From contig NZ_CP061314.1 of assembly GCF_018688255.1 (NCBI RefSeq), forward strand, positions 2,000,659 to 2,032,658: DNA of 32,000 nucleotides, given 5' to 3'. Position 1 is the stretch's first letter, and every line of letters begins with the position of its first letter. The DNA is from Polynucleobacter corsicus (GTDB taxonomy: Bacteria; Pseudomonadota; Gammaproteobacteria; Burkholderiales; Burkholderiaceae). Shown here piece by piece: positions 2,197 through 22,067 of the stretch. Both the position numbers and the translations under genes were made by a program. The notes beneath the pieces are model-generated. The model did no database searches, was not told where the DNA came from, and worked only from the letters and a program-made list of their open reading frames with translations.

Positions 2197-2454
2197 TTCT
2201 TGGTGGCCCGGGGCGGAATCGAACCACCGACACAAGGATTTTCAAATATCCTCCGATAGACCGCTTTCGCTTTAATTTCAAAGGCTTGAGTGACCAGTCT
2301 CGACTTGTCTAAAAATTGTGCGTCCTTGTGCCGGTCAAATTTGGCAATGAAATCAGAATCTTGCGAGGGACTATTTTTCCGTGTGTACAGATTGTGTCGC
2401 CATACCCTACCAGTCAATCACCATAGTGTCTATGAATGTCGTTTTAAACGACAT
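2197..2454. repeat. 258-bp repeat, copy A (tRNA-Phe 3' half plus about 190 bp plus palindrome 1)
   Basis: Differs from 7133-7390 at only two positions by manual alignment. Ends in the 19-nt palindrome ATGTCGTTTTAAACGACAT (2436-2454). Confidence 0.9.
2201..2245 (-). pseudogene. tRNA-Phe 3'-half fragment (CCA end to anticodon loop); att remnant
   Basis: 45 nt identical to 11923-11967 of the intact tRNA. Identity stops inside the anticodon loop, and there is no 5' half. Confidence 0.85.
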
Positions 2455-4762: not shown

Positions 4763-4842
4763 TATCGTTTTAAACGACATTACCAGCACAAGGATGAATA
4801 ATTGAAGCGTCCTTTTAAAGGACGCTTCATGATGGGGATATC
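4763..4842. repeat. dual-palindrome intergenic repeat, copy 2
   Basis: Palindrome 1 is TCGTTTTAAACGA (4765-4777). Palindrome 2 is AGCGTCCTTTTAAAGGACGCT (4806-4826). The tail CATGATGGGGATATC is at 4828-4842. Confidence 0.85.
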
Positions 4843-4880: not shown

Positions 4881-4937
4881 AAAATAGCCCAACAAGTGGG
4901 CTATAGAGATTCTTGGTGGCCCGGGGCGGAATCGAAC
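4881..4937 (-). pseudogene. terminator hairpin plus 24-nt tRNA-Phe 3' fragment (CCA end to T-loop); att remnant
   Basis: 57 bp identical to 11890-11946. The tRNA part is 4914-4937, and identity ends inside the T-loop (..AATCGAAC). Confidence 0.8.
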
Positions 4938-7132: not shown

Positions 7133-7390
7133 TTCTTGGTGGCCCGGGGCGGAATCGAACCACCGACACAAGGATTTTCAAATATCCTCCGATAGACCGC
7201 TTTCGCTTTAATTTCAAGGGCTTGAGTGACCAGTCTCGACTTGTCTAAAAATTGTGCGTCCTTGTGCCGGTCAAATTTGGCAATGAAATCAGAATCTTGC
7301 GAGGGACTATTTTTCCGTGTGTACAGATTGTGTCGCCATACCCTACCAGTCAATCACCATAGTGTCTATGAATGTCGTTTAAAACGACAT
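7133..7390. repeat. 258-bp repeat, copy B
   Basis: 256/258 identical to 2197-2454. Ends in the palindrome ATGTCGTTTAAAACGACAT (7372-7390). Confidence 0.9.
7137..7181 (-). pseudogene. tRNA-Phe 3'-half fragment; att remnant
   Basis: 45 nt identical to 11923-11967, diverging inside the anticodon loop. Confidence 0.85.
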
Positions 7391-9406: not shown

Positions 9407-10351
9407 TTAAAAAGGAATGATTAATTCTTCCATCACATAGCGATAAAAGTAATTGGGGCCTAAAAACCCAGCAGACTTTCCATAACCAGCACGAGTCTTA
9501 AAGTAATAGTCATTTGATGCTACCGGACTGGTTGCCGCGAACTCATAAAGTTGTGTAGTGGTACTTGGATCTTGATTGACTGTTTGCCGCCCAACACCTG
9601 CTGTGCCACTGAGCATCCAACCCGCCATTCTTTTTCTTGCCCCAAACGCAATCATCGTTTCGTTATAGGTTGATGGGTTGAAATAGTTATTAGCAACATT
9701 GGTATTGGTATCCCTAAATTGGCGATAACGCAGTTGCGCCGTTAGCCCGTAGTCTGGCACTAGGTCGTAAATGAGCTTTGCCCTCACTATTGGCCTTGTA
9801 TTAGTGTCAGAGAAATACATATTGGCACCCATCAATATCGCAGTTAAACGCTCAAGAACTTGTTGCTCAATGCTCACTCCGCCAAGCGTGTAATAGATTC
9901 CATTGTTTAAGGAGTTTTGCGTCTCCACTCTATCTCGATTAACAATCACTTCAGCTTTTGTAGAGTCTGTTACGCGAAATCCATAATTACTATCAGTTGT
10001 AACTAATTGATGGCTATTCTCAGTGTTGTAACCAATATTGAGGTTATAGCCTAGAGCTGTTCGCGGATTAATTGCCTTTGTCATTAACGTATATTGCTCA
10101 CCTGTTGAGCTCCAGCCGCCTTGCGTAAAGTAATTGTGCTGATAGGTAATGCCTGTATATTTTTCACCATGCTCGTACAAAGGTAGGTAGCCTGCCTTGT
10201 ATTTGTATGTAGAAAACCCTTCGCTATCGGAGCTGAAATACACATTCGGCACTGAAATAGCCTGCTTTGTTTGCTCTGTCTCTTCTTCGGCATTCGCATG
10301 AGAACTAAACAGTATGGAGATCATTAGAAAAATCTGAACTATTCTTTTCAT
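9407..10351 (-). CDS. outer-membrane beta-barrel protein of unknown family, coupled to the GT2 synthase
   Basis: Signal peptide is MKRIVQIFLMISILFSSHANA. Y/G/N/T-rich alternating pattern with a C-terminal ...ELIIPF. ATG 10351-10349 overlaps the synthase TGA (10350-10348) as ATGA. Confidence 0.7.
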   Translation of the reverse strand: MKRIVQIFLMISILFSSHANAEEETEQTKQAISVPNVYFSSDSEGFSTYKYKAGYLPLYEHGEKYTGITYQHNYFTQGGWSSTGEQYTLMTKAINPRTALGYNLNIGYNTENSHQLVTTDSNYGFRVTDSTKAEVIVNRDRVETQNSLNNGIYYTLGGVSIEQQVLERLTAILMGANMYFSDTNTRPIVRAKLIYDLVPDYGLTAQLRYRQFRDTNTNVANNYFNPSTYNETMIAFGARKRMAGWMLSGTAGVGRQTVNQDPSTTTQLYEFAATSPVASNDYYFKTRAGYGKSAGFLGPNYFYRYVMEELIIPF

Positions 10352-11922: not shown

Positions 11923-11998
11923 TGGTGGCCCGGGGCGGAATCGAACCACCGACACAAGGATTTTCAATCCTCTGCTCTACCGACTGAGCTACCAGGCC
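11923..11998 (-). tRNA. tRNA-Phe (anticodon GAA), 76 nt with encoded CCA
   Basis: Reverse complement is GGCCTGGTAGCTCAGTCGGTAGAGCAGAGGATTGAAAATCCTTGTGTCGGTGGTTCGATTCCGCCCCGGGCCACCA. It folds as a cloverleaf: 7-bp acceptor stem, anticodon loop TTGAAAA, T-loop TTCGATT. Confidence 0.95.
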
Positions 11999-12002
11999 AA
12001 GA
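11960..12002. repeat. attL-type 43-bp direct repeat (tRNA-Phe anticodon loop to 5' end plus 4 nt)
   Basis: ATTTTCAATCCTCTGCTCTACCGACTGAGCTACCAGGCCAAGA is identical to 22025-22067. Confidence 0.85.
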
Positions 12003-12007
12003 CTGCT

Positions 12008-12013
12008 ATTATA
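12008..12013 (-). promoter_or_regulatory. candidate -10 box (TATAAT) driving tRNA-Phe, supplied by the island side
   Basis: On the minus strand TATAAT sits 9 nt upstream of the tRNA 5' end. A second TATAAT (22074-22079) sits 10 nt beyond the displaced 5'-half copy. The -35 is weak. Confidence 0.4.
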
Positions 12014-12265
12014 CGCAAACTGTTCTTAAAGCTGTTAAAAAATCCTCTACTGTGCGTTTCCACCTTGTAGTTATCAGCCTTTCTGCTGTATGCACGCTAT
12101 ACAAAATAGTTTTCACTGTGTCCATTTTGTCCCACTGTAAAAACCCTGCGTTTACTTAAACCACACCCTACAAGCACACAAAACCTACCAAAATATTGCT
12201 GTTAGCAGTTGTAGCACACCAAAAATCAGGTTGTCCTTGTACTGTGCTGACACTACGCTATAAAA

Positions 12266-13519
12266 ATGCGTCGTCCGTTTACACAGTTAGTTAAAGCACA
12301 AGGTACAAGTAGCAACAGCCTCACCACCTTACAAAATGACAACATTGTGTACTTGCGCGACGGAGAGGTAGTGCTGTACAAGCGTGAAAACAGTAGCGTA
12401 TGGCAGATGCGCTACAGGCTATATGACAAGGAGTGGCGCAGGGTAAGCACAAAGCATCACAACATAGACTACGCAATACGAACAGCAGGCGACATATATG
12501 ACGAGGCGAGATTTAGAGAGCGTTTAGGATTGTCGTTCACTCGTCGCAAGTTTGGTGCTATCGCTAAAGTTTGTTTACAAGATATAAGAACAGAAATAGA
12601 CGCTGGCATAAAGCCAATGACTAACAGCGACTACACAAGAGCAATAAACAAATATCTTATTCCGTTTTTTGAAAACTACTATATAGAAAATATAGACGCA
12701 GAAGTAATGCGTCAATATGAAGTGTGGCGCAATGAACTAATGAAACGCATTCCGTTAGCGAGTACATTAGCAACTCACGCAAGCGCATACAGACGAGTGA
12801 TAGACACAGCAATACAGCGTGGATGGTTGAGCGAAAACTTACCTACAGCACAAATGAGTAGGCGTGGAGAGAAAGGTAAGGCGCGACCAGGCTTCACGCG
12901 AGCAGAGATTGATTACTTGTTAGATTTTTTAGATAGCTACAGTAAAGGTGGGCACAGTGCTCGCGCAAAAGAAATGCGCTTGTTGAGTAGAGACTACATA
13001 GAGTTATTGATTGGTACAGGTATGCGCTGTGGCAAAGAGAGCCTACACATTAAATGGAAGCACATAGAGTGGTACATAGACAGCAACACAGCAAAACGGT
13101 ACCTGCGTATATGGGTAAGCGGAAAAACAGGCGCACGCCACCTAATTGCTAAGCACAAAGTACAAGAAGCATTAGAGAGATTAATAAGTAGAGAGCCAAT
13201 ATTTAATGGCAAAACATTGGACATGGTGCTAGCAGAGAAGCATGATGTTTATTTGTTTAAGCTATCTGACGGCGATCGTCCAAAGAGCTTTCACACAACA
13301 TTTAATTGGCTAATGAAAGCAAGTGGCTTACTTAAAGATGCGGCTACAGGACAGAACAGAACACAATACAGCCTGCGCCATACCTATGCCACCCTAGCAC
13401 TTACTGATGGCGGCATGGATGTACATACACTAGCAAAGCAAATGGGAACAAGTGTTGGGATGCTTGAAAAACATTACAGCAAGCTAACGGCGACAATGGC
13501 GGCGGATAGATTGGCTTAA
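12266..13519 (+). CDS. tyrosine-type site-specific integrase
   Basis: 417 aa. C-terminal catalytic signatures are GMRCGKESLHIKW (R), YSLRHTYAT (H-x-x-R) and MGTSVGMLEKHYSK (Y). Lies adjacent to attL. Confidence 0.9.
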   Translation: MRRPFTQLVKAQGTSSNSLTTLQNDNIVYLRDGEVVLYKRENSSVWQMRYRLYDKEWRRVSTKHHNIDYAIRTAGDIYDEARFRERLGLSFTRRKFGAIAKVCLQDIRTEIDAGIKPMTNSDYTRAINKYLIPFFENYYIENIDAEVMRQYEVWRNELMKRIPLASTLATHASAYRRVIDTAIQRGWLSENLPTAQMSRRGEKGKARPGFTRAEIDYLLDFLDSYSKGGHSARAKEMRLLSRDYIELLIGTGMRCGKESLHIKWKHIEWYIDSNTAKRYLRIWVSGKTGARHLIAKHKVQEALERLISREPIFNGKTLDMVLAEKHDVYLFKLSDGDRPKSFHTTFNWLMKASGLLKDAATGQNRTQYSLRHTYATLALTDGGMDVHTLAKQMGTSVGMLEKHYSKLTATMAADRLA

Positions 13520-13539
13520 GCGTAAATTTTTTTTACGCT
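13519..13539. repeat. 21-bp palindrome family, copy a (AGCGTAAA-ttttt-TTTACGCT)
   Basis: 8-bp inverted arms and a 5-nt T-rich spacer. Overlaps the last base of the integrase stop codon and lies 10 nt from the REase stop. Confidence 0.85.
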
Positions 13540-13549
13540 TGCCACTTAG

Positions 13550-14602
13550 CTAAAGTCTTATTAACAAGTTAAATTTGAAAAACTTATCATCAAAAACCTT
13601 TCCGAAGTCATGCCGTGTTGTGCTTGCCGTATCAAAGAAGCTATGCTCAAAAAGATAGTCATTAAGGTTGGTGTTGGATTGGGTATCGTCTAAATAAAAA
13701 CTAGCTAATTTGCCATCAGCCTTAACTACGATCATTCCACCGTTCGCCGATAAGGATCCATTCCAAAGATCTCGTGGCACCATACCAAATGCTGTAGCTG
13801 TCAAAAATTTAGAAATGATCTTTTGGTAGTCACTTGTATTGGTGAAATTGAAAGGGTTTTTATTCGCCACAATCGCCAATAAATCTTTTATATATTTTTC
13901 CCTATTGCTGGCTCCATAGTATTCAACAAGTAAGCGACTAATAAGAATTTCTAAATTTTGATCCACCCTTTGTAAGTTTTGCTTGTATGTTTGATTAACA
14001 GAGCCGAGATGCTTCAGTGGCAATGACTTAACAAGTCTGCCTAAATTTTTAGGTGTCGGGTCGGCTATGCTAATTTTAGAGGGTGCTTCATATAAAAAAT
14101 TAGTGGATTGTGAGGCGTTTAATAAAGAAGTTGCGCCACCTAAATTACTTTTGATGCTAAAGCCTTTTATGGCTTTGGTTTGACTGGCTGAGTCATAGAT
14201 CTCTAGCTTAATATCACTTTTTTCAGAGCGAGTTGCTTTTATTTGAGGATTAAAAAAGTCATTCCACAGACTATCAAGCTGATTAAAGCTAAAGGTTGTT
14301 GATGTGGAAGTTTGGATCTGTTGGAAAAGGCTTGTAGCAATACCTTTTACATCACCAATTGGAATGCTGTTGTTTTGCCCATCATAGTTAGCAATAACAG
14401 AATCATTTTGAACAGCTAAGCTAACAAATTTATTGGGAGCATCTGTGGGTATAAGGATTGAATGAACTTTATATTGACTGGTATTTTGGTCGGCTAAAGA
14501 TTTGTCGGACAAAATAAAATTGGCATTACCAATCAGAGCAAGAAGCGCATACGCCTCACTCCATTCACCACGATTCATTGTTAAGTTTTGTATCCTGCTC
14601 AT
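13550..14602 (-). CDS. type II restriction endonuclease, HpaII-like family (predicted CCGG)
   Basis: 350 aa, immediately downstream of the C5-MTase. The N-terminal NRGEWSEAYALLALIG matches the KGEWSE-Y-x-L-K-LL signature I recall for HpaII-family enzymes. The lack of CCGG in the island is consistent with this. Confidence 0.65.
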   Translation of the reverse strand: MSRIQNLTMNRGEWSEAYALLALIGNANFILSDKSLADQNTSQYKVHSILIPTDAPNKFVSLAVQNDSVIANYDGQNNSIPIGDVKGIATSLFQQIQTSTSTTFSFNQLDSLWNDFFNPQIKATRSEKSDIKLEIYDSASQTKAIKGFSIKSNLGGATSLLNASQSTNFLYEAPSKISIADPTPKNLGRLVKSLPLKHLGSVNQTYKQNLQRVDQNLEILISRLLVEYYGASNREKYIKDLLAIVANKNPFNFTNTSDYQKIISKFLTATAFGMVPRDLWNGSLSANGGMIVVKADGKLASFYLDDTQSNTNLNDYLFEHSFFDTASTTRHDFGKVFDDKFFKFNLLIRL

Positions 14603-14625
14603 AAAAGGCAGGATACATCAAACTA

Positions 14626-15558
14626 TTAATTTTTAGAACTTTTAATATATTTGATAATTGATTTAGCAACTTCTTGTATCGCATCAACGGCAACACTATT
14701 ACCAAGCTGTTTCATTGCCTGACCTTTGGCAACAGGAAATTGAAAATCATCAGGGAATCCCATCATCTTCTTCCCTTGTTCAACGCCCAACCTCTTTACT
14801 TGTCCATCCACTAAGTAAGCATCCCAATTTCTTCTATCATCTATGCCTGAGCCTTTTCCTCCAACCCGAAGAGTAAAGCCAATCTCCCGAGAACATTCAC
14901 CACCCCAAACATCAGACATATTAAATTTCAATTCTTTTTTGTCAGGAAATTGAAATGGCTCTTTGTAATCATCTTCTTTGCGGAAACCAATAATAAAAAT
15001 TCTCGGTCTATGCTGTGGTAGCCCGTAGTCAGAAGCTTTCACGACCTTGTAGTGAATGTCATACTCAAGTTCTACTTGTAGTATTTGCTTAATTACATCA
15101 AATGTTCTGCCAGTGTCGTGATTTTGTAGGTGCCTTACATTTTCCAAAAAAAATGCTTTGGGTCTCTTAGTTTTTAATATGTCTCTAATGTGAAAAAACA
15201 TATTACCCCGTGACTCATGTTCTTCATTAAATCCCTTTTTATGTCCAGCCTGTGAGAAAGGCTGACAAGGAAATCCCGCACAAAGAATGTCATGATCAGG
15301 AATATCATCAGGATCAATATTTGTAATGTCGTCATTAAATAAGGGACTATCAAACATATCTTCGCTAAACAAGTTAGGCGAGATGGACTTAAAGTTTTCT
15401 TTATAAGTCTTGCGGGCGAAAGGATCTTTCTCAGACGCAAATACGCATTCACTCCCTTCATTATGAAATGCGATGTGGAAGCCGCCAATTCCTGCGAACA
15501 GATCAATAAACTTAAGTTTATTTTTGTTTGATTTGGATGGTTTGCGTGTTTTATTCAT
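14626..15558 (-). CDS. DNA (cytosine-5)-methyltransferase
   Basis: Canonical C5-MTase motifs: I DLFAGIGGF, IV GFPCQPFS, VI ENV, VIII QHRPRIFIIG, X GNSVAV. The variable region is short. Confidence 0.92.
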   Translation of the reverse strand: MNKTRKPSKSNKNKLKFIDLFAGIGGFHIAFHNEGSECVFASEKDPFARKTYKENFKSISPNLFSEDMFDSPLFNDDITNIDPDDIPDHDILCAGFPCQPFSQAGHKKGFNEEHESRGNMFFHIRDILKTKRPKAFFLENVRHLQNHDTGRTFDVIKQILQVELEYDIHYKVVKASDYGLPQHRPRIFIIGFRKEDDYKEPFQFPDKKELKFNMSDVWGGECSREIGFTLRVGGKGSGIDDRRNWDAYLVDGQVKRLGVEQGKKMMGFPDDFQFPVAKGQAMKQLGNSVAVDAIQEVAKSIIKYIKSSKN

Positions 15559-15589
15559 AGTGATTTATTTTTTAATTATATTGTCTTTT

Positions 15590-15610
15590 AGCGTAAATAT
15601 TTTTTACGCT
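15590..15610. repeat. 21-bp palindrome family, copy b (AGCGTAAA-tattt-TTTACGCT)
   Basis: Lies between the MTase start (15558) and the stop of the 279-aa gene (15617). Confidence 0.85.
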
Positions 15611-15616
15611 TATTTT

Positions 15617-16456
15617 TTACTTACTCTTCTTTGTTCCTGTTGGTCGCCCAGCTTTACGCTTATAAGGGGTTGTTATTGCTTCAGTAAAGTTCTTATCGGA
15701 TGGGAATCTTCCTCTTGCCGCATTCTCAGCAACTAATGACGCACAGCGAATCAATCTGCTTGCGGCAATGCTAAGCAATTCTTTTCTATCTGCTAATTCA
15801 GCCTCTAATATGTCGCCCGCCTCTGACTCAATAAATGACTGTGCTGGGATAAGTCTTAGGTGATTGCCAATTTTCCAAAGTGGCACATCCTTCTTATATA
15901 AGCGTAATGCGGTTAATCCATTCTGTAATGTATCAATGCGCAATTTACTATTTGACAGTTGGTATAAGGGCGCTACTTGTTTTGGCAGATCTGCTGAAAA
16001 TCCATAACCCTCTAATTGCTTGCGTAGTTGTTTAAGTGCTTGCGGAAGAGTTAGATTAAGAGGTAATTCAGCCACTACTGAATTAACTCCCGCCCATTCA
16101 TTTATTAATTGCTTTTTAGTTGAATCTAAAACGCCTACAACATTGACTTTTGGTAATGGCGCACTTATCCCATATAACCGCATGCCTATCTCACCCCACC
16201 AGTCTGCTTCCCGCATTTTGTAGATTGGACCAAAGTCACTTACAACTTGCGCTACATCCTTAAAGTCTTTTGGTAATGGGTAGGGTGATTTTTGCTTAGC
16301 TAATTTACGCATTACAGCTTCATAGCTGGGACTTGCTTTTAGGTAGTCACAAACCAAGTCATATCGCAAATCAGGTTTAACTGAAATTCCAGTCTGTTCA
16401 TAGCTTGCCTCCAATGACATAAGGCGTGGGAGAGGTTTTCGTCCTAAATTAGCCAT
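15617..16456 (-). CDS. hypothetical protein with a basic AT-hook-like C-terminal tail
   Basis: 279-aa ORF with no overlapping alternative. The tail YKRKAGRPTGTKKSK contains a GRP core. I recognise no family. Confidence 0.6.
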   Translation of the reverse strand: MANLGRKPLPRLMSLEASYEQTGISVKPDLRYDLVCDYLKASPSYEAVMRKLAKQKSPYPLPKDFKDVAQVVSDFGPIYKMREADWWGEIGMRLYGISAPLPKVNVVGVLDSTKKQLINEWAGVNSVVAELPLNLTLPQALKQLRKQLEGYGFSADLPKQVAPLYQLSNSKLRIDTLQNGLTALRLYKKDVPLWKIGNHLRLIPAQSFIESEAGDILEAELADRKELLSIAASRLIRCASLVAENAARGRFPSDKNFTEAITTPYKRKAGRPTGTKKSK

Positions 16457-16596
16457 TTAATATTAACAAGTATAGATAAATTATCTCATCATAATAATTC
16501 ATGTTAATAAATCTTACAATAGATACATAGATTGAACAAAGCAACACAGTTCATCCCTCTTTAACAATTAGCAAATTTTTGTAGTAGCAGTAAGCA

Positions 16597-16617
16597 AGCG
16601 TCAATTTTTTTGACGCT
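16597..16617. repeat. 21-bp palindrome family, copy c (AGCGTCAA-ttttt-TTGACGCT)
   Basis: Sits in the divergent intergenic region, 72 nt upstream of ATG 16689. Flanked by direct TAGCAGTA octamers. Confidence 0.85.
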
Positions 16618-16688
16618 TAGCAGTAGTCAGTGTGTAAGCAATTTAGCAAGCACGCTTTTAATCAACGCCATTTCTTAAGGAGATAAAC

Positions 16689-17501
16689 ATGGCTAAATCA
16701 GTAAGCAGTAAAACAGCATTGTCCGCACAATCAATCATTGAGAAAGCGGATGCTTTAGTAAAACAGCGTGAAAACTTTGAACAAAATGAATACGCACGCA
16801 GTAATCAGCGTTTGTATGAAATTTTGGCGCAAGTGTTAGAAATGTATGAACAAGCAAGTATTAGCAAAACAACTTTGTCTGAAACTGTTAAGCAAATGAA
16901 GGCTAAGTTAGAAGCAAGTAAAGTGCGTGTTCAGACTAATACGCTGGCATTAACACTATTTGTGCGCTATGTATTCCGCACTGATAGACAACGCAGTATG
17001 AACTACAGCAGAACTTTACAGGCGGCTTTACAGCAAGGCATTAATGCTAAGCAGTTAGCGCAGTTTGTAGAGGACTGTGGCGGTGTAGAGCAATGTAAGA
17101 AGCGTTTTACTAAATCAGAGAAGGTTGTGGCAAAGGAAACTGTTATTGCTAACAATCTAGCTTTAGTAGATGACACATTAGCTAGCTTAGCTGAAAACCC
17201 ATTAGCAACATTTAAGGTTCCTAATAGTGTTGTAGCTACTACCTATGACAAAGAGTTTGTATTTGTAATTGGTAAGGCTGACAAGCAAGGCAACATTAAG
17301 GCGCTTGGTGCTGTGCCAGCATATTCAGCGGGCATGGCTAAGTGGGCTAAACAGCAATTAGCCTTGTTTATTAGTAATCAGCAGGCAATTACTAAGAAGC
17401 ATGCTAATGCTAAGCGCAAGGACACAGCACTTGCTACCGCAAAGTCTGCCGCAAAAAGCAAAACGCCCACTGAAACAGTAGGCGAATTGTTAGCGGCTTA
17501 A
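16689..17501 (+). CDS. hypothetical protein, first gene of a two-gene operon with the AAA+ ATPase
   Basis: 270 aa, with AAGGAG 6 nt upstream of the ATG. Appears helical with a basic Ala/Lys-rich tail. I recognise no family. Confidence 0.6.
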   Translation: MAKSVSSKTALSAQSIIEKADALVKQRENFEQNEYARSNQRLYEILAQVLEMYEQASISKTTLSETVKQMKAKLEASKVRVQTNTLALTLFVRYVFRTDRQRSMNYSRTLQAALQQGINAKQLAQFVEDCGGVEQCKKRFTKSEKVVAKETVIANNLALVDDTLASLAENPLATFKVPNSVVATTYDKEFVFVIGKADKQGNIKALGAVPAYSAGMAKWAKQQLALFISNQQAITKKHANAKRKDTALATAKSAAKSKTPTETVGELLAA

Positions 17502-17570
17502 CTTACAAAAGTGTTTTGAAACTTGGGCTGGGTGTTGGCGCACTCAGCCCACAAACAAAGGATAACTGAT

Positions 17571-18227
17571 ATGAATAGTAATTTCAAGTATCGCCCTCAG
17601 ACTATAGATGAGTTTGTTTTTGCTACACCTAAATTGGAGACACAAATCAAACGCTATACGCAGGGTAAGTCATTATTACCATTGGTGCTATATGGAGCAT
17701 ATGGGACTGGCAAGAGTTTATTGGCAGACTTAATTCCAAAGGCATTAGATGGCGCAGATGTAAAAGTTAATTACATCAACGCAGAAGAATTAAACAATGC
17801 TAATGATGTGCGTAAAAAGTTTTTTCGCTCTGTTCAATTTGATAAGTTCTTTACAACTAATGGACAAAAACACAACTACACCGTAGTAGAGGAGGTTAAT
17901 TTTGATCCTAAAGCAAAGGGCGCATTACGAGTGTGCTTGGATGATATGGCTGAGCGAGAACTGTTTATCTTCACAACAAATGAAGTTGATAAGATAGATA
18001 AAGGCTTGCTTAGCAGAGCTGAAGTAGTTGAAGTATTGCCTGCGCCACCTGATCGTTTCTTCCCTCGCGCACAGCACATATTACGCAGTGAAGGAGTTGA
18101 TTTAGAAGACAGTGTCTTGCGTGATGTGTTGGAAACAGTGTATGAGAACGATTATGATAATCGTGCCTACTATCGTGCTTTAGATGAAATTATTGAAGCA
18201 TGGAATGACAACACACTACAGCAATAA
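17571..18227 (+). CDS. clamp-loader-like (RFC small subunit / T4 gp44-like) AAA+ ATPase lacking the collar domain
   Basis: FKYRPQTIDEFVF (RFC box II, compare gp44 KYRPSTIDECIL). Walker A is GAYGTGKS, Walker B-like is VVEEV, sensor-1 is FTTN, and the SRC-like arginine finger is SRA. ATG 17571 has AAGGA 8 nt upstream. Confidence 0.7.
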   Translation: MNSNFKYRPQTIDEFVFATPKLETQIKRYTQGKSLLPLVLYGAYGTGKSLLADLIPKALDGADVKVNYINAEELNNANDVRKKFFRSVQFDKFFTTNGQKHNYTVVEEVNFDPKAKGALRVCLDDMAERELFIFTTNEVDKIDKGLLSRAEVVEVLPAPPDRFFPRAQHILRSEGVDLEDSVLRDVLETVYENDYDNRAYYRALDEIIEAWNDNTLQQ

Positions 18228-18230
18228 TCA

Positions 18231-18251
18231 AGCGTAGATTTTTTTGACGCT
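18231..18251. repeat. 21-bp palindrome family, copy d (AGCGTAGA-ttttt-TTGACGCT, imperfect)
   Basis: Starts 4 nt after the ATPase stop. Has one mismatch and one G-T pair in the arms. Confidence 0.75.
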
Positions 18252-18259
18252 TAACTTTT

Positions 18260-18293
18260 AAGCCCGCTTATTAACTTAGGCGGGCTTTTTTTA
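18260..18293 (+). terminator. Rho-independent terminator between convergent genes
   Basis: AAGCCCGC-12 nt-GCGGGCTT followed by a T7 run. Confidence 0.8.
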
Positions 18294-18857
18294 TACCAAC
18301 TCAACAGCCTTACGCATCATATCGTCCGACGCAAAAATATAGATGGAAGTTGTCTGTATGTCCTTATGTCCCATTAAGTGCTGTAGTACCTTAATACCCA
18401 CACCATTGCTTGCTAAGTTCGTTGCGAAAGTCCTGCGTCCGCTATGTGATGAGGCTTTAATACCTGCTTTGCGATAGAGCCAAAAGAACCATTGTGTCAG
18501 CGTGTTAGCAGAAAACCCATTTGACTTTTCTGTAGCAAACAAAGGCAGTGATGTGTCTTTAGGTGAGTAATGCTTTAAGTAAGTAGCTAATTCAGTTCGT
18601 AGCTTTTCATTTACAAACACCACCCTTCCTTTGTTGCCCTTCGTTTGACTGGCAGATAAGCGTATCTCGCTTTTAATCGTTCCATCTTCATTTCGCACAT
18701 CGCATATTCTTAGTGCGGCAATCTCCCCAACTCGCATCCCACTCCAACAGCTTGTCAGTAGCATCGCCCTGTTTCTAATGCTGTATTTCTGTTTTGTGCT
18801 GATGTAGCGCAATACCATATCTATTTCTGATTGATTTAATGTTTTTGCTTGTGCCAT
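18291..18857 (-). CDS. small tyrosine recombinase, catalytic domain only (FimB/FimE-sized)
   Basis: 188 aa. Catalytic residues are present: GMRVGE (R), TKGNKGR (K), HSGRRTFAT (H-x-x-R), LMGHKDIQTTSIYIF (H..Y). There is no N-terminal core-binding domain. Confidence 0.85.
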   Translation of the reverse strand: MAQAKTLNQSEIDMVLRYISTKQKYSIRNRAMLLTSCWSGMRVGEIAALRICDVRNEDGTIKSEIRLSASQTKGNKGRVVFVNEKLRTELATYLKHYSPKDTSLPLFATEKSNGFSANTLTQWFFWLYRKAGIKASSHSGRRTFATNLASNGVGIKVLQHLMGHKDIQTTSIYIFASDDMMRKAVELV

Positions 18858-19161
18858 TTTCTTGCTCCATAAAAGAATTTATTGTTATTAGTATGTTTTC
18901 TTATTAGCAAAATTCCTACCGAAAAATGGCAGAAAAAGATCTTCCATAAATCAATGACTTACGCAGTCAAAGTAGCTCGTTATAAGAATTTAGTAATTTT
19001 CTTATTACGCCGTAGTCAATAAGCCACACCTATAGCAAGCCCTATACGCTTTTATTTAAGCGTTCTGTAGCTTGGGTATTAACTTAGTCGGAATTTTGCT
19101 TTGTAGCGTTGATTTGATGTATTGCTGTGCTACGCTTATAAAACCAACGCTAAAGGACTAT

Positions 19162-19650
19162 ATGAGTGATATGTATTTGACAGAAGCTGACTTTAATTTT
19201 CAGAGTGATAACGCTGAATTAAGAGAGAAGGCTGAAAATATTGTCAATTTCACAAGCTCAGTCCTTTTAGATTTAAGCGACGAAGATATTGACGCTATCA
19301 AGCAGTTAGAGGACATATTTCTATCTTTACAAGATTCCTTATTTTCAAATTCAGACACAATATTAAAAAGTAAGCGTTTGGGTTTTACGGAAGAAGATAA
19401 AAAGAAGTTAGATGAACTACAAATAATTCTTTTAGATAAGTGGAAAGAATTTGGATTCACCGAAAGCTTCTTTCATCGGCTATATCAAGTTCAGCGCCAA
19501 TTGAATGGTTCTGAATTAAACGCCAATCAGAGCGAACGCTTAGATTTGTTATTTCAAATACTTAATGAACAGAAAACCCTTGTAATTGCTTTCAATGTAA
19601 TGCGTAGTAAGGATCGCCCTGTGATATTGGATGTAGAAGAATATATGTAG
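19162..19650 (+). CDS. hypothetical acidic helical protein
   Basis: ATG 19162 has AAAGGA 6 nt upstream and is preferred over the upstream TTG 19072. No recognisable motifs. Confidence 0.5.
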   Translation: MSDMYLTEADFNFQSDNAELREKAENIVNFTSSVLLDLSDEDIDAIKQLEDIFLSLQDSLFSNSDTILKSKRLGFTEEDKKKLDELQIILLDKWKEFGFTESFFHRLYQVQRQLNGSELNANQSERLDLLFQILNEQKTLVIAFNVMRSKDRPVILDVEEYM

Positions 19651-19684
19651 ATATATGCCACGCAAAATTTCAGGTAGTAGCTGT

Positions 19685-19754
19685 AAATTTTTGTAGCGCA
19701 GTTTTTAAGGGGTGCGTAGATCTTAGCCACTGGTGATTTAATCTAACCACACCC
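19685..19754 (+). repeat. ~70-bp degenerate direct repeat, copy 1
   Basis: Shares the identical blocks TGTAGCGCAGTTTT and TTAATCTAA, in the same order and spacing, with 21613-21682. Lies just after the stop of 19162-19650. Confidence 0.6.
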
Positions 19755-19756
19755 TA

Positions 19757-20071
19757 TTAAGCCGAATCTATTACATCTCCGTTGCCATCTTCTAATTGAT
19801 AGACATGTTCTGTGGTGCCTTTGCGATCACTGAACCAATCATCATCTTCATAGTTTTCATATTCAATGTGATAAAGCATCTTATAAAGTTCAAACCAAAC
19901 ACTTGGGTCTGATGGTGCTTCGTCAGGATATTCCTCCAAATCTTCACCACTACTTTGTTCTACACGAGATTTAAGTGCTTCCCATTGATCTTGATCTTCT
20001 GTATCAAACTCTTCCCAAAATGATTGAATAACAGTTTGATATAGATCTTGTTTCGCTTTGAACTTAGGCAT
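19757..20071 (-). CDS. small, highly acidic protein (candidate DNA mimic / anti-restriction-like)
   Basis: 104 aa, with AGGAA 7 nt upstream of the ATG. I count about 29 D/E against 8 K/R, with aromatic residues interspersed (EYENYEDDDWF). Confidence 0.6.
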   Translation of the reverse strand: MPKFKAKQDLYQTVIQSFWEEFDTEDQDQWEALKSRVEQSSGEDLEEYPDEAPSDPSVWFELYKMLYHIEYENYEDDDWFSDRKGTTEHVYQLEDGNGDVIDSA

Positions 20072-20815
20072 TGTAAATTCCTATTAAGTTGAGAAATCAA
20101 ATAAGTTATTACATTGATAGGCGAAATACATTCGCCTGTGATTTCGCTTGCGCTCATCACCTTTTCTTCTCTAACTATACTAATAAAATATTAAGCTGAG
20201 TTAATGCTTAATGAACTTTTGATAGATTCAACCTACACTGAGCCTTAAGCAACAGGCTCAGTTATAGAAAAGTTCTTTTGATGAGTTCTTTACTACACCA
20301 CTATAAGCACAACCAATTGGTAAGGGCGGTTTCGCTATCTCCTTTTATGTGCGGCTTAAAACGCAACAATGACAAAAGCAATAAGTGGCTACCTTTATCT
20401 TGTTTGAAAGTTGCTGTGTAAGCAGGGCTTTCTCGTGACGCTCACAGCCCTATAGGCTGTCGTCTTTGTGCTGTTCATATACTTGATTCAATTAGTTAGC
20501 AAAGCTAATAGCGTCCTGTTAAGGATAGTGAATACAAGTCTCTGCTACCGCACAGAAATTCCATCCCTGTGACTCTTAGTCCAGTTTTAGGGCGACATAA
20601 CAACTGAGTGTCGCTACTCGTTATCGGTAGTAATTGTTGGCATATAGAGCTTTCTTCTGTTCTATTTGTCTAATTTATTTATACAAGTGATAAGAATAGA
20701 AATAAGAATCTGGCTTTTTATTTGGTAAGAATGGGGCTTTGTCCGTAAGCCTCTTGTCCAGTTAAAAACTCTGGCAATAAATTAAGTGTGTTCATTAACT
20801 TATAGGAGAAATAGC

Positions 20816-21256
20816 ATGAGCACATTAAGCACTTTGAAGTTGGTAGCAGTAAAAAAGCCAACCCATATACCAGCACTACAGCATCGCCGTAATAAGCTGT
20901 CTAACAAGTTATGGGAGCAAATCAATTTGGCGCAAAGTCAAATTGATGGCAAGCCGTTTGTAGTAATGAAGTTTCGCTCGGTTAAAGATATTGAAACGGG
21001 CTTACGCAAACAAGTAGAAATTCCCAAACGCATTAAAGCGTGGTGGTTTGTAGCAGACACAGGCAAGGTTTGCTTTTCTGTGAAATACGGCACACGCACT
21101 TTGGAGTTGGCGAAAGGCAAACCCAGTGTTCAAGTAGAAAGCGCAGAAGACTTAGTTAAAGCATTAACTGCCATTAAGTCAGCAGTGGAAGCTGGTGAGC
21201 TTGATAGTCAAATTGAAGAAGCAAGCAATGCGCTACGCAAAGGATTTGGCAAATGA
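20816..21256 (+). CDS. hypothetical protein, first of three translationally coupled genes
   Basis: ATG 20816 has TAGGAG 7 nt upstream. 146 aa. Its stop overlaps the next ATG as ATGA. Confidence 0.6.
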   Translation: MSTLSTLKLVAVKKPTHIPALQHRRNKLSNKLWEQINLAQSQIDGKPFVVMKFRSVKDIETGLRKQVEIPKRIKAWWFVADTGKVCFSVKYGTRTLELAKGKPSVQVESAEDLVKALTAIKSAVEAGELDSQIEEASNALRKGFGK

Positions 21257-21396
21257 AGCAATACAGGCTATGGGTACGCATCAATCAAACGCAAACAGCC
21301 AATACGATTGTGTTTGCGGACAATGCGTATACGGCAAAGCAATTAGGTGAGGCGCAGTATGGAGCTGGTAATGTGCTGAACTATACGGAAGTATGA
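21253..21396 (+). CDS. 47-aa small protein, below the ORF-track cutoff
   Basis: MKQYRLWVRINQTQTANTIVFADNAYTAKQLGEAQYGAGNVLNYTEV. ATGA overlaps both the upstream stop (21253-21256) and the downstream start (21393-21396). Confidence 0.5.
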   Translation: MKQYRLWVRINQTQTANTIVFADNAYTAKQLGEAQYGAGNVLNYTEV

Positions 21397-21614
21397 GTAG
21401 TGCTTTAGTGGGGGCTGGGTTAAATACTTGTATGCGCTTTTATGAATTTGCCCACACCCCCACAATCAAGCCTATCAAGCCAATGAACCCACAGCAATAT
21501 CGCCTGTATAGCCTAAAGCGCAACAAAGAAAATGCTAAGAAGGCTTATAAGGCTGAGAAGGATAGGCAGACTGTAGCTAAAGCACAGCAACAGATTTTCA
21601 AAGCTACTCACTAA
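21393..21614 (+). CDS. small basic hypothetical protein
   Basis: 73 aa with a Lys-rich C-terminal half (KRNKENAKKAYKAEKDRQ). Coupled to the 47-aa ORF. An internal start at 21432 is possible. Confidence 0.45.
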   Translation: MSSALVGAGLNTCMRFYEFAHTPTIKPIKPMNPQQYRLYSLKRNKENAKKAYKAEKDRQTVAKAQQQIFKATH

Positions 21615-21682
21615 AAATCTGTAGCGCAGTTTTCAAACGCCACGCAGAACCTAACCCCCACCAGTTTTAATCTAATACCCCC
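21613..21682 (+). repeat. ~70-bp degenerate direct repeat, copy 2
   Basis: See 19685-19754. It starts at the stop codon of 21393-21614. Confidence 0.6.
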
Positions 21683-21796
21683 CAATAACTATTAAATGTG
21701 AAATATGTGTTTTGACGCAAAAAGCGTGGGTTTTTGGCAGTTTTTATATGTATTTTTATTTTGGTATGAGTGGGGACGAGAGGCTATGCTGAAATG

Positions 21797-21817
21797 GGCG
21801 TAAATTATTTTTACGCT
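21797..21817. repeat. 21-bp palindrome family, copy e (GGCGTAAA-ttatt-TTTACGCT)
   Basis: The first base is G instead of A; otherwise the architecture is the same. It is the last copy before attR. Confidence 0.75.
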
Positions 21818-21935
21818 ACTCAACATACTTTCTGCCAGCACCATAAAACACTTTTTCAACACACCAAGCAATATTTTTTTCTGCGCTGTATCAATAGAAA
21901 ACGCTTGTAAATATTTTTACTGTGTAAGTTTTTTA

Positions 21936-21962
21936 GTGTCACTGTGTCACACAGCGTGTCAC
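21936..21962 (+). promoter_or_regulatory. three direct GTGTCAC heptamers, candidate arm-type recombinase/RDF binding sites near attR
   Basis: GTGTCAC occurs at 21936, 21944 and 21956, and overlaps the palindrome CTGTGTCACACAG. Related YACTGTG motifs lie at 21918 and 21940, and near attL at 12048, 12114, 12133 and 12240. Confidence 0.35.
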
Positions 21963-22024
21963 GCACCACTTTGCTATCGCCCTGCGAAGCATATAAACAT
22001 TGGGCTTTTGACTACCGTAGGAGT

Positions 22025-22067
22025 ATTTTCAATCCTCTGCTCTACCGACTGAGCTACCAGGCCAAGA
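22025..22067. repeat. attR-type 43-bp direct repeat (displaced 5' half of tRNA-Phe)
   Basis: Identical to 11960-12002. There is no tRNA 3' half next to it. Confidence 0.85.

Follow-up and report, generated by a model that had tools for sequence, protein, structure and literature searches.

The genes analysed here lie in a 32,000-nucleotide stretch of the Polynucleobacter corsicus genome (contig NZ_CP061314.1, positions 2,000,659 to 2,032,658; hereafter the window), in a tRNA-borne island of about 10 kb (approximately 12003-22067). They are p279, coding for a protein of 279 aa on the reverse strand (15617-16456), and, transcribed divergently from it, p270 (270 aa, 16689-17501, forward strand) and a gene for a 218-aa AAA+ ATPase resembling clamp-loader subunits (17571-18227, forward strand). 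Coordinates and sizes of the three open reading frames (ORFs) agree with the preliminary description, which had regarded the trio as either an uncharacterised anti-phage or anti-plasmid module or a unit serving replication or regulation in an island of satellite type. We found that the trio belongs to the backbone of a family of related islands, that it is under purifying selection and that its ATPase is catalytically intact. It is thus very probably a backbone or life-cycle module and not a defence system carried as cargo. Taken as a whole, the data are best explained by a module for the maintenance, or the replication and control, of the excised island, a reading that we favour with moderate confidence.

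Related loci (numbered L001 onwards) were collected from the genomic contexts of homologues and by a scan of GTDB genomes, after which all their ORFs were searched with phmmer. The three protein families are of similar size in a large protein collection (216 homologues of the ATPase, 179 close homologues of p270 and 169 of p279); the named homologues are from Polynucleobacter and most of the others from metagenome contigs. At least 15 related loci, comprising all those with enough flanking sequence, contain p279 on one strand, p270 and the AAA+ gene on the other, and a gene for a small recombinase. The related islands usually also have the Polynucleobacter-1 RNA, a DUF6641 gene and a large integrase. 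The order of the block is p279(-), p270(+), AAA+(+), sometimes a gene of 105 aa, then the small recombinase, DUF6641 and a 73-aa ORF, with the integrase at one end. The proteins of L001, L002, L003, L005, L007/8, L009-L013 and L019/20 are 53-91 % identical to those of the window, while identities are only about 25-34 % in L014, L016 and L017 (all four genes) and in L015 (p279 not detected). These four distant loci come from Methylophilaceae, Rhodospirillales, an unclassified Pseudomonadota metagenome-assembled genome (MAG) and another Polynucleobacter. In L014, L016 and L017 the small recombinase is on the other side of the trio, which thus has the reverse orientation with respect to this gene, DUF6641 and the integrase. 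The p270-ATPase operon is divergent from p279, and the trio and the small recombinase have been inherited together across deep divergence. The preliminary description had been prepared to give up its proposal if the genes did not co-occur in other genomes or matched a known replication module of integrative elements; the trio genes occur together down to about 25 % identity, and no such match was found.

The slot between the large integrase and p279 differs from island to island. It contains an HpaII-type restriction-modification (R-M) pair in the window, L001 and L019/20, another type II R-M system, made up of a methyltransferase and two restriction endonucleases with an EVE protein, in L002, a type I R-M system in L007/8, PDC-S37 (E 7e-79) and PDC-S57 in L005, and an outer membrane beta-barrel protein with an unknown, i.e. 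non-defence genes, in L003. The smallest version, L017, measures about 7.5 kb and is a minimal element consisting almost only of the core genes and the integrase, with nearly no cargo. As the block is constant while the contents of the slot change, the trio is the backbone and the R-M pair the cargo. The position of the trio directly beside an R-M pair in a tRNA-borne island was correctly described (HpaII-type endonuclease and C5 methylase immediately to the left, tRNA-Phe at 11923-11998). The supposed defence module is nevertheless the conserved life-cycle core of mobile islands that carry defence genes, and it is the cargo that varies. Judged from the sequences, the trio forms, together with the neighbouring small recombinase, the Polynucleobacter-1 RNA, DUF6641 and the 73-aa ORF, the core of a family of 7.5-11 kb islands. 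In Polynucleobacter and other Proteobacteria of fresh water, these islands are integrated at the anticodon-loop region of tRNA genes.

The ATPase shares with clamp loaders (RFC small subunit, T4 gp44, gamma/tau) the KYRP box, Walker A and B, the sensor 1 TTN, an arginine finger of the SRC type (here SRA) and a lid with sensor 2, the motifs reading FKYRPQTIDEF, GAYGTGKS, FIFTTNE and LLSRAEV. The likeness, seen with Pfam, PHROGs, NCBIfam, the PDB and the family alignment, has firm statistical support: PHROG 168 ('clamp loader of DNA polymerase') matches at positions 14-209 of its 314-position profile (E 6e-25), and the archaeal RFC small subunit 2chg with E 8.6e-11, residues 6-185 of the ATPase aligning to chain residues 10-188 of 319. 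Both matches end before the collar, and the protein consists of the AAA+ base and lid only; as the preliminary description had stated, it stops where the RFC/gp44 collar domain would start, and the aligned family members are all 217-242 aa long. An alternative TTG start at 17523 would extend it to 234 aa, but the ATG at 17571 is taken as the right start, since homologues are mostly 217-222 aa and most start with MN(T/S)xxKYRP. Walker A, Walker B E108, sensor 1 T135/N137, the arginine finger R149 and sensor 2 R198 are invariant across the family, including members of 24-27 % identity, which argues for an active, oligomerising ATPase and against a relic.

Clamp-loader genes of the gp44 type from cyanophages and T4-like phages share about 31 % identity with the ATPase (562 phage records). 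In the PDB search the ATPase was equally similar to archaeal and eukaryotic RFC, and it is therefore not specifically phage-derived. Compared with true clamp loaders, it lacks the collar (domain III), has about 218 aa instead of 320-340, and scores far below the equivalog cut-offs of NCBIfam (RFC small subunit 1.7e-14 and 53.6 bits against 303; dnaX 32 against 250). Moreover, it is found in a mobile island with two partners lacking fold relatives, and no clamp, polymerase or second clamp-loader subunit is encoded near it; neither the island ORFs scanned nor the genes called in the related loci included a clamp, polymerase or wrench-subunit gene. On collar, thresholds and partner genes alike, the sequences place it as a relative of the clamp-loader family and not as a member. 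The IstB and DnaC models of PHROGs and NCBIfam matched it only at E ~1e-3.

p270, the first gene of the operon, encodes a helical protein with an arginine-rich conserved core and a C-terminus ending in LLAA. Its AlphaFold2 model is confident (pLDDT 86.6), as is that of p279 (pLDDT 88.7, pTM 0.80). Foldseek comparisons with the PDB gave no fold relative for either model, nor did a comparison of p279 with BFVD, the best hits having E values of 0.4-3 and TM scores of 0.1-0.2. Neither protein matched anything in Pfam, PHROGs, NCBIfam, PADLOC or the PDB sequences. The remote-homology and structure searches proposed in the preliminary description thus gave neither a family nor a fold relative for these two proteins. 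Single matches to DNA_pol3_delt_C (E 0.017), bacHORMA_2 (E 0.008) and HmvA (E 0.053) were discarded as noise, being sub-threshold and unsupported by predicted secondary structure or Foldseek. The idea that p270 and p279 are paralogues was also rejected (hhalign probability 0.2). A profile search with p270 collected 992 clusters at 50 % identity, nearly all those listed being 240-300 aa long and matched as a single stretch. Sixty-six distant relatives of p270 had no consistent Pfam, PHROG or PDB match, and six distant p279-like and four distant p270-like proteins gave nothing significant in Pfam. With tblastn p270 had no matches in plasmids or phage records, and p279 none in phage records; a scan of IMG/VR viral contigs by two peptide patterns of the 270-aa marker likewise found no relative.

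The C-terminus of p270 (window 17472-17501) ends in a motif that recurs far above expectation: 63 of 125 representatives of distant clusters have -AA and 64 of the 119 close ones LAA, the tail before it being variable. ClpX recognition signals include ssrA-like C-terminal tags, and by analogy the -LAA/-AA tail is possibly an ssrA-like degron directing the protein to ClpXP. In L009, L010 and L013, p270 proteins 53-81 % identical to that of the window are found on contigs labelled Rhodobacteraceae, Bordetella parapertussis and Planctomycetota MAGs. These labels likely result from mis-binning, or else the gene has spread widely by horizontal transfer.

p279 has a C-terminal AT-hook-like tail, KRKAGRPxG, as noted earlier; R267, G270 and R271 are invariant in the family and P272 and G274 nearly so. 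A segment resembling a helix-turn-helix is seen by eye at residues ~174-200, and may be one. From these features p279 is probably a DNA-binding regulator. The 232-bp region between p279 and p270 (16457-16688) contains, as originally described, a palindrome, AAGCGTCAATTTTTTTGACGCTT (16596-16618), which overlaps a -35-like TTGACG; a sigma-70-like promoter for p279 lies at 16507-16480. The palindrome is found at the same position in L001 and L002. The motif AGCGT-N11-ACGCT occurs five times in the window (at 4806, 13519, 15590, 16597 and 18231), compared with 0.01 copies expected by chance. Four of these copies are in the island, which has in addition a GGCGT variant at 21798, and one is in a neighbouring island. 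Copies are located in the divergent promoter, close to the att sites and at the borders of modules, with equivalent places in L001 and L002, and the motif is also present in L012.

After the copy at 18231-18251 comes a canonical intrinsic terminator of its own (18260-18287; forward strand), so that the palindromes are not simply terminators; the copy at 16597 lies between divergent starts. A function as cassette borders or recombination sites was considered because the cargo of the window lies between two copies, those at 13519 and 15590. This fails in L002, and in L001 only one border has a copy. The lack of consistent bracketing, together with the same orientation of all copies in the window, argues against recombination sites. 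Our best guess is that p279 uses the palindromes as operators or as architectural sites. Another repeated palindrome, TGTCGTTT(W)AAACGACA, occurs in neighbouring islands (window 827, 2436, 6922, 7371 and 11703) and also in L001 (4385), L002 (15153, 19066 and 19475) and L010 (2736). Similar TGTCG...CGACA palindromes adjoin the p279-like gene in L016 and L018.

The small tyrosine recombinase (188 aa, 18291-18857, reverse strand) consists of an Xer-type catalytic domain only (Pfam 9e-29, residues 6-175). It aligns to residues 99-274 of XerA and 109-287 of XerD, the core-binding domain being missing, and its motifs GMRVGE, HSGRR and GH...SIY, read by eye, fit the catalytic residues R-K-H-R-H-Y. 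It adjoins the trio in every locus that has a tyrosine recombinase, even when gene order is rearranged. L018 (3756-4310), from a Methylomonas MAG, has a p279/p270 pair with a serine resolvase and a P4-type integrase, and neither an AAA+ gene nor a small tyrosine recombinase was detected there. The presence of a serine resolvase in place of the small tyrosine recombinase would fit a generic role in multimer resolution, although this is one case only.

The Polynucleobacter-1 RNA (RF01718; 20481-20619, reverse strand) matches over all 141 model positions (101.2 bits against a gathering threshold of 37, E 1.6e-21) and lies in a conserved non-coding stretch of about 700 bp, with conserved flanks extending over 20219-20622. 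It is found above threshold at the same place in L001, L002, L005 and L007, and it is a fixed backbone element of the island family. The paper describing this RNA (PMC2864571, supplement) gives no function for it and mentions only that it is associated with a gene family bearing a distant likeness to a cyanophage locus. In contig data from lake metagenomes, which are suggestive only, the k-mer depth of the RNA region was about 30 times that of the trio. In three of four metatranscriptome contig sets, similarly suggestive, 20219-20622 was better represented than any other part of the island except the tRNA repeat, and these contigs extend beyond the Rfam motif.

In the life cycle that we propose, the large integrase would excise the island. 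The co-transcribed p270 and collarless ATPase would then form an ATP-dependent complex for loading onto or remodelling DNA, which would maintain the circular element and most likely replicate it by recruiting host replication factors. p279, with its AT-hook tail and possible helix-turn-helix, would control the divergent promoters, perhaps via the AGCGT-N11-ACGCT palindromes, while the small recombinase would resolve multimers. p270 may be kept short-lived through its ssrA-like C-terminal -LAA/-AA tail. The regulation and replication modules of SaPI and PICI elements share the same layout, with an integrase, a leftward gene and a divergent rightward operon. The trio occupies the position where elements of the SaPI, PICI and tycheposon types keep their replication genes, which supports a function in maintenance or replication. 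The earlier suggestion of a replication or regulation unit of a satellite-like island thus stands as regards a conserved island backbone. Its satellite part lacks support, there being no packaging genes in the island, no matches of p270 and p279 in phage records and, by the two peptide patterns, no relative of the 270-aa marker in IMG/VR.

Several observations weigh against maintenance or replication of the excised island. The Pfam scan of the island ORFs found no clamp, polymerase, primase or helicase domain, in agreement with the preliminary description, nor an initiator domain, and we know of no clamp-loader-clade AAA+ protein that assembles without a collar, quite apart from the missing clamp partner. 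Neither the ATPase nor p270 had relatives on 72,556 plasmids searched with tblastn. Origin-like iterons or tandem repeats were not found, TRF giving only three weak arrays, all near attR. Among read-based sources only metagenome contigs contained the island sequence, and the odd joints in them were not interpretable as attP. Foldseek recognised no DNA-binding fold in p270 or p279, and the functions assigned to the p270 tail and to the palindromes are themselves conjectural. The strict adjacency of the small recombinase would fit a function in recombination equally well. Replication as the specific mechanism is put forward only tentatively.

The strongest competing explanation, although an unlikely one in our view, is that the trio assists recombination. 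p279 and/or p270 would provide the small recombinase with its DNA binding, and the ATPase would control synapsis, directionality or target choice, much as TnsC, MuB and IstB control their transposases. The small recombinase, reduced to a catalytic domain, is always beside the trio in the tyrosine-recombinase loci, including the rearranged L014, L016 and L017; palindromes are placed close to att sites and at the borders of modules, and it is clear that islands have exchanged integrase and cargo modules with one another. However, an active recombinase acting on the four or five palindromes of the same orientation in one island would delete the backbone, and the palindromes are not consistently at the cargo borders (none in L002). 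In addition, the recombinase of L018 is a serine resolvase, integration and excision can already be served by a complete large integrase, and to our knowledge no ATPase of the clamp-loader clade regulates a tyrosine recombinase.

Improbable, and the weakest reading when set against the comparative data, is stand-alone defence, in which the truncated gp44/RFC-like ATPase and its two partners would sense or poison phage replication, e.g. by interfering with a T4-like clamp loader, and would be carried by the island as a fixed anti-phage outfit. The resemblance to phage gp44-type genes, the defence genes evident in the island and the lack of another assigned role for the novel proteins speak for it, and the backbones of satellites can encode interference functions. 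The anti-phage or anti-plasmid function first suggested is nevertheless not borne out. PADLOC gave nothing for p279 and p270 and only generic P-loop/AAA matches for the ATPase, the best (E 1.6e-4) being to TRIP13 over 47 residues; archaeal and eukaryotic RFC are as similar to the ATPase as the phage proteins, and p270 and p279 have no phage relatives. The trio furthermore stays the same while the neighbouring defence genes are exchanged, is kept in the nearly cargo-free L017 and is always coupled to recombinases.

Still less probable is that the trio and the Polynucleobacter-1 RNA solely regulate transcription or immunity at island induction with the ATPase as a signal-dependent switch: the divergent promoters with a palindrome over the -35-like element, the AT-hook tail of p279, the labile-looking tail of p270 and the RNA-based immunity of satellite P4 would agree with this, but an RFC-type AAA+ protein with intact arginine finger and sensor 2 implies an oligomeric motor remodelling DNA or protein, and the RNA is linked to the trio by co-residence alone.

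The limits of the island are defined by a 46-nt direct repeat (11957-12002 and 22022-22067). The repeat corresponds to the 5' half of tRNA-Phe, with exact identity over tRNA positions 1-39, from which a crossover in the anticodon stem-loop region may be deduced. The left copy is part of the intact tRNA-Phe(GAA) gene (11923-11998, reverse strand; ARAGORN and Rfam), and the right copy is a partial tRNA-Phe on the same strand, exact at 22025-22063. The 5' half of the reconstituted tRNA-Phe thus comes from the island itself, which is unusual for tRNA-targeting integrases, and a TATAAT is found on island DNA immediately upstream of it. Among the related islands the target is tRNA-Phe, Met, Lys or Arg. 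The duplicated half is the 5' half in the window island, L001, L010 and L020, and the 3' half instead in L002, L003, L012 and L015.

Three further partial copies of tRNA-Phe, of the 3' half, occur at window 2201-2245, 4914-4937 and 7137-7181, which makes this tRNA gene a two-sided insertion hotspot. The segments they delimit encode a GT2 glycosyltransferase, GGDEF and PAS/HD-GYP proteins and an OprB porin, and no integrase was found in them. In L020, a metagenome contig of 9,991 bp, copies of the 5' half are located on both sides of the island (positions 62-100 and 9901-9939), and the contig continues into DNA identical to the right end of the window island. This suggests, from the sequence, tandem islands in opposite orientation at the same tRNA.

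Within the island, the order of genes is the large integrase, the HpaII-type endonuclease and C5 methyltransferase, p279, p270, the ATPase, the small recombinase, a pair of small ORFs, a non-coding stretch of about 700 bp, DUF6641 and the 73-aa ORF. The tyrosine integrase (417 aa, 12266-13519, forward strand; Pfam Phage_integrase and SAM-like domains) faces inwards at the island end. Integrase modules have been swapped between related islands: only the last ~200 nt are homologous at the DNA level between the window and L001 or L002, and L019 has the backbone and cargo of the window with an integrase of 403 aa. The cargo consists of the restriction endonuclease (13550-14602; Pfam RE_HpaII 2e-62) and the cytosine methyltransferase (14626-15558; Pfam DNA_methylase 5e-77), both on the reverse strand. 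The genes to the right of the island are ordinary chromosomal and metabolic ones (FAA hydrolase, TctC, aldolase and YcaO).

Between the small recombinase and the RNA there are two variable accessory ORFs (19072-20071), of 192 aa on the forward strand and 104 aa on the reverse strand (19757-20071), for neither of which a family was found in Pfam, PADLOC, PHROGs or NCBIfam. The former is present in L001. The latter, strongly acidic, was in no other locus searched, and it could be an anti-restriction protein of the DNA-mimic type, which would be sensible on an element moving between hosts with R-M systems. At the far end, DUF6641 (20786-21256; Pfam 1.5e-13, phrog_31551) and the conserved 73-aa ORF (21393-21614), both on the forward strand, belong to the backbone by synteny. 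The 105-aa gene is located directly after the ATPase gene in L001 (10669-10986), L002 (10668-10985), L005 (10665-10982) and L019 (11632-11949) but is missing in L003, L007 and the island of the window.

Few bacteria of the freshwater plankton are as abundant as Polynucleobacter, and the movement of its defence genes is poorly understood. The islands described here appear to form a compact vehicle that carries R-M systems and candidate defence genes, with core genes unlike those of known satellites, integrative and conjugative elements, tycheposons or gamma-mobile-trio (GMT) islands. The analysis also provides a genomic context for the Polynucleobacter-1 RNA, which has been without known function since 2010, a family of proteins (p270) with some 1000 clusters but no model in Pfam, and a natural example of a clamp-loader-clade ATPase outside a clamp loader. 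As a caution, conserved backbone genes of islands that lie beside R-M genes should not be taken for new defence systems by position alone. More speculatively, the trio, the catalytic-domain-only recombinase and the RNA might together constitute a previously unrecognised core machine of mobile elements. In it a collarless RFC/gp44-like AAA+ motor, assembled by two proteins without fold relatives, would load host replication factors or drive recombination of an island that swaps tRNA halves and shuttles defence systems between abundant bacteria of fresh water. If so, this would be a new family of elements parallel to tycheposons and PICIs, and the first biological context for the orphan RNA motif.

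Tycheposons, described from Prochlorococcus and other marine bacteria, have an inward-facing tyrosine integrase, tRNA copies and cargo (Hackl et al., preprint 10.1101/2020.12.28.424599). The island resembles them in the integrase that faces inwards from one end, the complete and partial copies of the tRNA, the tandem pile-up at the tRNA, the small conserved core module with exchangeable cargo and the streamlined planktonic host (10.1101/2020.12.28.424599). It differs in that their hallmark primase, helicase and polymerase are missing (no primase or helicase in the Pfam scan), the core being instead the AAA+ trio, the small Xer-like recombinase and the RNA. The cargo here is mainly for defence, whereas theirs is for nutrient uptake; this separation was made on gene content.

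With the SaPI, PICI and P4 satellites the island shares a size of about 10 kb, an integrase with att sites, a divergent regulatory region followed by a rightward operon and accessory defence genes, and with P4 also a small structured RNA. In contrast to these satellites, it has no pri/rep, terS, capsid-remodelling or AlpA genes according to Pfam, PHROGs and NCBIfam, a helper phage is not known, and p270 and p279 are without matches in phage records, the 270-aa marker giving none in IMG/VR by the two peptide patterns.

The GMT islands of Vibrio have three core genes, including a tyrosine recombinase, and variable defensive cargo, so that the concept of a conserved core trio carrying variable defence is the same. 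The proteins, the hosts and the tRNA targeting are different: no match to GmtX or GmtZ was obtained with NCBIfam, and the small recombinase matched GmtY only weakly at the catalytic motifs (E 6.6e-6, cut-off 340 bits). TnsC/TniB, MuB and IstB likewise are small AAA+ ATPases next to the recombinase of an element and small partners, a possible functional analogy, but they fall into different AAA+ clades, and the enzymes they work with are DDE transposases. No publication on this island family or on DUF6641 was found in the literature. The island is closest to tycheposons and PICI-like elements in function and layout, and to GMT islands in concept, while having none of their hallmark proteins; it represents an apparently undescribed family of tRNA-targeting integrative islands with a new core module.

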